The translations under genes were made by a program, and so were the position numbers. Shown here in pieces: positions 30,777-30,905 of a stretch of DNA of 64,000 bases. The first letter of the stretch is position 1; every line of letters starts with the position of its first letter. A model generated the notes under the pieces. That model made no database searches. It had not been told where the DNA came from and worked only from the letters and a program-made list of their open reading frames with translations. Source of the stretch: Bacteroidota bacterium (lineage in GTDB: Bacteria; Bacteroidota; Bacteroidia; UKL13-3); NCBI GenBank assembly GCA_027491085.1, contig JAIXWW010000020.1, positions 72,586 through 136,585 on the forward strand, read 5' to 3'.

Positions 30777-30905
30777 AGATTTTTGATTTTTGGATGTGGA
30801 ATGGGTGATTAGGTTAATTGAGTTGATAGGTTGATTGGTTTGTAGGTTGAATTGTTATATTGTTGAATTGTTGATAGGTTTATAAGTTGATTATTAAGTG
30901 AGGTT
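30777..30905 (-). other. 129-nt G-free (mRNA-sense) low-complexity leader upstream of lpxB
   Basis: The plus strand contains no C from 30777 to 30905 by hand scan of every 10-mer block. It is built from words such as GAGTTGAT, GGTTGATTGG, TAGGTTGA and ATAGGTTTAT. Confidence 0.9.

Follow-up and report, generated by a model that had tools for sequence, protein, structure and literature searches.

A cytosine-free octamer array upstream of lpxB belongs to a class of polar 7- and 8-nt intergenic arrays in a Bacteroidota genome

The C-free tract upstream of lpxB in this Bacteroidota genome is a degenerate octamer tandem array and part of a genome-wide class of 7- and 8-nt intergenic arrays. It turns over between related species, obeys an orientation rule relative to ORFs, belongs to a class that avoids its missing base, and forms part of a composite module that is dispersed over several loci. 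With moderate confidence, we interpret it as the octamer half of a slippage-remodelled composite array, i.e., as a polar, base-avoiding, promoter-upstream spacer at a putatively leaderless lpxB. Arrays of this type would arise and be constantly remodelled by replication slippage and recombination in intergenic DNA. Their three-letter purity would result from a C-free repeat unit combined with a class-wide avoidance of the missing base. Their orientation would be kept by selection, with arrays surviving only if the signal-free strand is directed toward the adjacent ORF, that is, a strand that lacks AUG, GUG and UUG triplets, sigma-A elements with a G, and the capacity for stable pairing. At lpxB, the array would lie directly upstream of the -7 box and hence represent promoter-upstream spacer DNA.

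The window, i.e., the whole stretch of 64,000 nucleotides that was analysed, indeed holds no C on the plus strand from 30777 to 30905 (129 nt; T60 G38 A31), as a direct check of the letters confirmed, and the tract is flanked by a C at 30776 and at 30906. The lpxB start codon reads CAT on the plus strand (30757-30759), with 17 bases (30760-30776) between it and the tract. As the Pfam match of LpxB (PF02684) begins at residue 4, the ATG at 30759 is credible. The features at the locus and at its sister locus are the following.

29650..30759, minus strand: lpxB, lipid-A-disaccharide synthase (Pfam PF02684, E=7.5e-91)
30765..30772, minus strand: predicted sigma-A -7 box TACTTTCG, a TAnnTTTG variant, 5 nt upstream of the lpxB ATG
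30777..30799, minus strand: conserved proximal segment CCACATCCAAAAATCAAAAATCT (lpxB sense), a two-unit mini-array
30777..30905, no strand assigned: degenerate octamer array (8-nt tandem), C-free on the plus strand and G-free in lpxB sense, with GAGTTGAT, AGGTTGAT, TGGTTTGT, AGGTTGAA, TTGTTATA and TTGTTGAA among its units
30906..30919, plus strand: 14-nt junction CAGAAAAATTCATT from the octamer to the heptamer array (AAAAATTCGTT in other copies)
30920..30975, plus strand: perfect (TTGCCCA)x8 heptamer array (TRF, 100% matches)
30980..31017, plus strand: hairpin element GCCGTTGTTAGGTG...CACCAACAAC, 3' of the heptamer array here and in the module copies of some relatives
41081..41312, no strand assigned: sister arrays in the hpt-to-rsmB spacer, with GGTTGATN octamers (41081-41241; 5 C) adjoining AACAATTC octamers (41240-41312)

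In mRNA sense, the GU-rich part of the sister arrays follows the hpt stop and the CA-rich part precedes the rsmB start. A plus-strand ORF at 30920-31096 and an 88-aa ORF at 31103-31369 were rejected as spurious; they overlap repeats and have no Pfam match. The repeat-rich spacer adjoins an SOS-type mutagenesis cassette (31419-36623), in which an XRE-HTH/S24 repressor gene and a Y-family polymerase gene (IMS family) are oriented divergently, with a 981-aa ORF after the latter.

The tract is the longest run without any one base in the genome (2,991,422 bp, 21 contigs). C makes up 16.0% of this genome, in agreement with an earlier guess of about one base in six, and an iid model predicts 8e-5 C-free runs of 129 nt or longer per genome. 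Runs of at least 90 nt number 18 in the genome (12 C-free and 6 G-free) compared to zero in five third-order Markov genome simulations. The initial annotation had stated that the tract is no compositional accident, and both the iid expectation and the simulations bear this out. TRF reports periods of 8 and 16 at 30810-30891, with the consensus TAGGTTGA and 63-74% matches, and finds many further 7- and 8-nt intergenic arrays in the window and the genome. The genome-wide output is dominated by periods 7, 8, 14, 16 and 21, and comprises 112 non-overlapping intergenic arrays of period 7 or 8. The tract displays the features by which short-period arrays are recognized, namely a head-to-tail unit of 5-11 nt, many loci, unit-number turnover and polarity. 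That it would share words with the tract at 41081-41241 is supported to a moderate extent only: the two have 15 8-mers in common versus a shuffle mean of 3.1, but the shuffle maximum is 19.

The purity of the tract reflects a property of the class. A three-letter consensus unit, lacking either C or G, occurs in 80 of the 112 arrays versus 48.5% if intergenic 7/8-mers are taken as the expectation (p=1e-6). In 77 arrays oriented as C-free, deviations from the consensus unit were then compared. T>C changes occur at 2.6% per site versus 9.0% for the strand-symmetric A>G (p=9e-12), and A>C changes at 0.3% versus 4.7% for the strand-symmetric T>G (p=1e-11). Changes to the missing base are 3- to 14-fold rarer than their strand-symmetric counterparts, a figure that includes some ascertainment, as arrays in which C has risen to the consensus are classed as mixed. 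The avoidance is alike in start-side and stop-side arrays. Despite the ascertainment, the effect size indicates selection or a strand-asymmetric mutation process and not pure drift. The claim that drift does not explain the tract is thus right at the level of the class, given the strength of base avoidance inside arrays. The same avoidance, together with the persistence of an array at the lpxB site in nearly the whole genus, could equally mean a positive function, which counts against our preferred reading.

The orientation of the arrays relative to ORFs follows a single rule: the G-bearing strand, read 5' to 3', points away from the nearest ORF end, and the ORF-ward strand is G-free. Gene calling was crude, with every ORF of 80 aa or longer counted and its first ATG taken as start (2,414 genes, 86% coding), and the TRF-defined arrays used here were intergenic, of period 7 or 8 and with a three-letter consensus. 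On the start side, 35 arrays are G-free in sense, as the rule has it, versus three that are C-free (p=7e-8). On the stop side, 30 are C-free in sense, again according to the rule, versus 10 that are G-free (p=0.002). Over both ORF ends, 65 arrays follow the rule versus 13 that break it (p=2e-9), and the lpxB tract is among those that obey. Of 77 tracts of at least 60 nt defined by purity, 58 have their nearest ORF at the 3' end of the G-free strand (p=1e-5), and before starts 40 are G-free versus seven that are C-free. In relatives, the rule holds in 10/11 cases in G007 (400 kb) and in 7/9 in G012 (800 kb), the latter being weak evidence from a more distant genome with few arrays. Pooling the purity-defined tracts of this genome with those of G007 and G012 gives 75/97 (p=6e-8). 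A first orientation test, which took in every one-base-free run of 60 nt or longer along with segments from 40-nt windows, found no bias because it was diluted by chance-level short segments and counted both neighbours. The bias emerged with tracts of at least 60 nt when the nearest ORF alone was considered, and with TRF-defined arrays. An orientation bias relative to genes, on which the initial annotation had made its interpretation depend, is strong, with G-free arrays before starts prevailing 35:3 (TRF) or 40:7 (purity).

Several simple causes of this polarity were rejected. Polarity along the replication strand (GC skew) is not found (36 vs 42). A general G-poor leader effect does not account for it either, as the G depletion in the meta-profile is confined to -1 to -20. 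A model in which arrays are merely seeded by copying the local A-rich leader composition fails on stop-side polarity because G/C skew is absent after stops. A purely translational explanation also fails, since stop-side arrays are C-free in sense (30:10). The idea that GT strands mimic promoters is unsupported, as these strands carry 1.3 -7 boxes per kb versus a background of 1.4 per kb. This lack of enrichment also weighs against the part of our reading that invokes selection for harmlessness, as it weakens the argument that arrays in reverse orientation would create promoters.

The RNA that would be produced from the tract in lpxB sense has an MFE of 0 kcal/mol. Start triplets occur at 119 per kb on GT strands and at 46 per kb in intergenic DNA versus none on the CA strand, so that the earlier description of an lpxB-sense RNA devoid of start codons and structure was accurate. 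Across the wider spacers, no significant structure was detected (z-scores of +0.95 and +0.33), leaving a long hairpin or structured RNA there unsupported, and an Rfam search of 29500-42500 gave no match. These properties would suit the idea that the tract is a long, transcribed, G-free 5' leader of lpxB, which would promote Shine-Dalgarno-independent initiation by being free of start codons and structure. The strong contrast with the opposite strand (119 start triplets per kb) and the 35:3 excess of arrays that are G-free in sense before starts both speak for it. Moreover, initiation in Bacteroidota relies on unstructured, A-rich leaders (PMC6847099). Nonetheless, we consider it unlikely for lpxB. 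It leaves the C-free polarity after stop codons unexplained, the general depletion of G upstream of starts spans only about 20 nt, and the predicted promoter of lpxB is located on the wrong side of the tract.

This promoter assignment relies on the distances between -7 boxes and start codons in the genome. For TAnnTTTG, these are bimodal: 65 genes form a sharp peak at 4-8 nt, and a second, broad one spans 14-32 nt. TAnnTTCG has the same two peaks, including 11 genes at 4-5 nt, and in the genome-wide histogram the control variants TAnnTTAG, TAnnTTGG, TAnnTTTC and TAnnTCTG show neither of them. In total, about 77 of 1,606 genes have a box 4-8 nt from the ATG, a class that would fit leaderless genes. 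In Flavobacterium psychrophilum, the -7 box is found at -12 to -5 and 5.5% of mRNAs are leaderless (PMC9723704), while in B. thetaiotaomicron 5' UTRs of less than 10 nt represent 3.7% (PMC7366714). From its equal distance peaks, TAnnTTCG acts like a functional variant of the sigma-A -7 box TAnnTTTG; TAnnTTTA also has a peak at 4 nt (15 genes).

At lpxB, the box and its spacing are invariant (TAYTTTCG) in 15 species of the genus, including species without a long array; the 5 nt between box and ATG vary in these species, as does the array. TACTTTCG is the only -7 box on the lpxB strand of the 660-nt spacer, and in 8 of 13 relatives the corresponding box is likewise the sole one. The upstream neighbour of lpxB varies by species (a divergent ABC-F gene, other genes or repeats), and as these neighbours differ, lpxB needs its own promoter. 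As no more than about 20% of promoters in this genome carry a -33 TTG, a G-free -33 region is no obstacle. Judging from the position of the box, the lpxB mRNA is most likely leaderless or has a 1-nt leader, with transcription starting at the AUG or one base before it. With a box at leaderless spacing between tract and ATG, the tract most likely lies upstream of the transcription start; it would probably occupy roughly -16 to -144 of the promoter region and be no leader. The transcribed lpxB leader put forward in the initial annotation is hence probably wrong, given the conserved box 5 nt before the ATG. Two points temper this conclusion and with it our preferred reading: the leaderless start is predicted from motif position, and read-through from the S24-repressor gene on the same strand could place the array in some lpxB transcripts. 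The crude gene calls likewise count against our preferred reading.

Other members of the class may behave differently from the lpxB tract. A proximal G-free tract is present at 53 genes, and in 12 of them a box separates tract and ATG (23% versus a 19% baseline). In 17, mostly between co-directional genes, the tract overlaps the called start or ends no more than 13 nt from it, and no box intervenes; there the tract must consequently be in the mRNA, and these genes favour a leader function. Placement of box and tract is ambiguous in the remaining 24. The leader interpretation thus describes some of the sister arrays and probably not the lpxB tract. The tract also resembles the CA-rich translational enhancers of E. 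coli that Martin-Farmer and Janssen reportedly described in 1999, in being CA-rich, unstructured and beside a start codon. Unlike these enhancers, which are said to act within the mRNA, it most likely precedes the transcription start, is far longer and is not conserved.

Conservation was assessed in 24 orthologous lpxB upstream regions. The genus consists of MAGs of uncultured freshwater (lake and pond) Bacteroidia. A CA-rich array (lpxB sense) is found at the same place in nearly every congener, and all 24 regions differ in words and length, with the longest G-free run ranging from 30 to 165 nt. The array words vary by species (e.g., GAATTGTT, GATTTTT, GGTTGATT and AAGTTAAT), and small palindromes (GTCCCGATAAATCGGGA) are inserted in some. 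The orthologous spacers differ by blocks of 8, 16 and roughly 40 nt; for instance, this genome and L011 differ by one CCTATCAA unit, and L018 and L028 by about 40 nt. The segment at 30777..30799, which occupies the expected -33 region, is maintained across the genus and reaches 4-5 units in one species. In two congeners (L020 and L023) the array is nearly absent, and it is absent at the two lpxB loci checked outside the genus, L024 (76% LpxB identity) and L026 (52%). A leader or enhancer would be expected to be conserved in presence and length across orthologues, and the variation from 30 to 165 nt and the two congeners nearly without an array show that it is not. On the basis of these comparisons, the tract is a fast-evolving array of the slippage type and no conserved sequence element, and its absence of G is the extreme of a distribution and no fixed property. 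The initial annotation had regarded it as a dedicated element; this did not hold, as it is one octamer array of a genome-wide class, apparently formed by slippage, and its length and words differ in every related species. Polymorphism at strain level was sought by two metagenome pattern scans, one with no hit and the other with a single hit, and a search for a contig with an exact LpxB protein match found none.

The tract is also one half of a larger unit, the order of which is degenerate octamers, junction and perfect heptamers. This composite module occurs at two further loci of the same genome (C13:32393-32546 and C4:38578-38847) with approximately 85% identity. Its junction was found in 7 of 19 genus genomes, often at contig ends, and the copy number is therefore underestimated. 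On the minus strand, the heptamer array reads (TGGGCAA)8 or (GGGCAAT)8, a canonical G3N4 quadruplex-type sequence motif, and in G polarity it runs counter to the octamers, which makes the module a convergent pair. With the usual pattern of at least four G3 runs and short loops in mind, the octamer tract with its single GGG does not qualify as a quadruplex, while (TGGGCAA)8 fits the sequence pattern. The heptamer copy number ranges from 2 to 17 in relatives, with a TTGCCTA variant in one species, and the array can also be missing. Thirteen module copies follow the polarity rule: eight have the 5' end of their GT strand against a gene start, three have it against the stop of an OmpA-like gene and two are located at contig ends.

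Such a layout raises the possibility of a promoter-architecture or phase-variation function, in which the array acts as a UP-like, curvature or spacer DNA element and its copy number tunes lpxB or a rightward transcript. Phase-variable promoters with simple sequence repeats exist, such as that of the hmw genes of H. influenzae with their 7-bp repeats; this type is characterized by a repeat placed inside the core promoter or between promoter and start codon. Here, in contrast, the arrays are on the far side of the predicted core promoter (30765-30772) as seen from the ATG, with the perfect heptamers 160-215 nt upstream. Consistent with such a function, the array begins 4 nt upstream of the -7 box, few promoters (about 20%) have a -33 TTG, the length of the perfect heptamer array varies greatly among relatives, and (GGGCAAT)8 on its minus strand has a G3N4 quadruplex pattern like that of published repeats (PMC4692102). 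However, more than 40 nt separate the variable parts from the conserved core downstream of them, the module is likewise found after the stop of the OmpA-like gene, arrays adjoin -7 boxes without excess (12/53 versus the 19% baseline), and Rfam finds no RNA rightward. We judge this account very doubtful and place it last among those considered.

A different function is suggested by the base content of the RNA. The 129 nt of the tract, read in lpxB sense, contain 38 C and 23 YC dinucleotides but 0 G, and the genome encodes Rho (PF07497, 118 bits). The tract thereby has the C-rich, G-poor, unstructured RNA of at least approximately 70 nt that characterizes a candidate rut site. The arrays could be directional insulators maintained by selection, in which an RNA polymerase heading for the ORF would produce an untranslated, unstructured transcript that is rich in C and free of G, start codons and promoter boxes; such RNA would load Rho, and read-in transcription would be blocked before the gene. 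The targets would be sense read-through before starts and antisense transcription after stops, with outgoing transcription allowed to pass. This proposal has a single rule for both ORF ends (65:13) and is consistent with the C content, the lack of structure, the presence of Rho and the location of lpxB's own predicted promoter downstream of the array. Against it, about a third of the start-side arrays reach the ATG with no intervening promoter, in which case the gene must be transcribed through the array, and on the stop side the sense RNA lacks C, the reverse of what a terminator for the gene's own transcript would need. Insulation is the most interesting of the readings, but not the best one, and we hold it to be quite improbable. 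If true, 7/8-nt arrays would serve as polar boundary elements in Bacteroidota generally, and perhaps in Xanthomonas and Nostoc as well.

As a spacer array of the type we prefer, the tract belongs to a known kind, the lineage-specific intergenic tandem arrays with 7/8-nt units. Mrazek, Guo and Shah reportedly surveyed long simple sequence repeats with 5-11-nt units in PNAS in 2007, and the cyanobacterial STRR heptamers are said to have been described by Mazel et al. in 1990. These repeats share with the present arrays a lineage-specific excess of 7-8-nt tandem units in non-coding DNA and a supposed origin by slippage. To our knowledge, neither polarity toward ORF ends nor avoidance of one base within arrays was reported in these surveys. 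The closest parallel in orientation is provided by the G-rich heptamers GGGAATC of Xanthomonas and GGGGA(C/T)T of Nostoc (Rehm et al. 2015; PMC4692102). They occur upstream of an ORF on the antisense strand or after a stop on the sense strand, in both cases at a distance of no more than 50 bp, frequently form convergent pairs and have no preference for a replication strand (PMC4692102). The present arrays are alike in being intergenic arrays of the 7-nt class at many loci with the same polarity, convergent pairs and no replication-strand preference. They differ in their 8-nt unit, which is strongly degenerate, three-letter and without G3 runs, i.e., not of the quadruplex type; only the attached (GGGCAAT)8 resembles the G4 repeats of Rehm et al. 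The host is a low-GC Bacteroidia genus, unlike Xanthomonas and Nostoc. Direct repeats of the heptamer TAACTGA have been described in Beggiatoaceae, cyanobacteria and five Bacteroidetes, and translational regulation was proposed for them (MacGregor 2015; PMC4679880). Similar to the arrays here, they are short, mostly intergenic and mostly oriented toward a nearby downstream start codon, with unit-step indels between strains and several repeat types per spacer (PMC4679880). On the contrary, they have another unit and period, contain G and are short (2-6 copies in BOGUAY), and neither a two-sided start/stop rule nor a three-letter constraint is described in that study (PMC4679880). What is new relative to the known kind is the degenerate three-letter 8-nt unit, its coupling to perfect G3N4 heptamers and the site against a putatively leaderless promoter.

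Taken alone, the tract is an ordinary, if extreme, intergenic simple-sequence array. The gain is at the level of the class, where strong two-sided polarity is combined with avoidance of the missing base, and where arrays appear either in leaders or upstream of leaderless promoters. For annotation, the lesson is that transcription of a long "G-free leader" in Bacteroidota should not be assumed.

Some further observations concern the surroundings of the arrays. A conserved motif, GTCATCCTGAGCTTGTCGAAGGA(G/T)G, often adjoins heptamer arrays in the relatives L011, L020-L022, L032, L034 and L038, and a search of the present genome with up to four mismatches allowed returned zero copies. Short hairpin-type elements at 30980-31031 and 31316-31410 are found at many loci in other genomes of the genus (approximately 80-93% identity) and are single-copy in this one. 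The block 30992-31417 sits approximately 3.5 kb from lpxB in three relatives, a displacement that marks the spacer as a rearrangement hot spot. In the present genome, approximately 470 nt of non-coding DNA with a structured look (C4:38850-39320) separate a composite module from the next gene and may hold an uncharacterised RNA. Finally, relatives contain longer runs than the 129-nt tract described here: the G-free run upstream of lpxB in L013 measures 165 nt, and a C-free run of GAGATGG/GAAATGA heptamers in G007 (C10:127255-127407) measures 153 nt.
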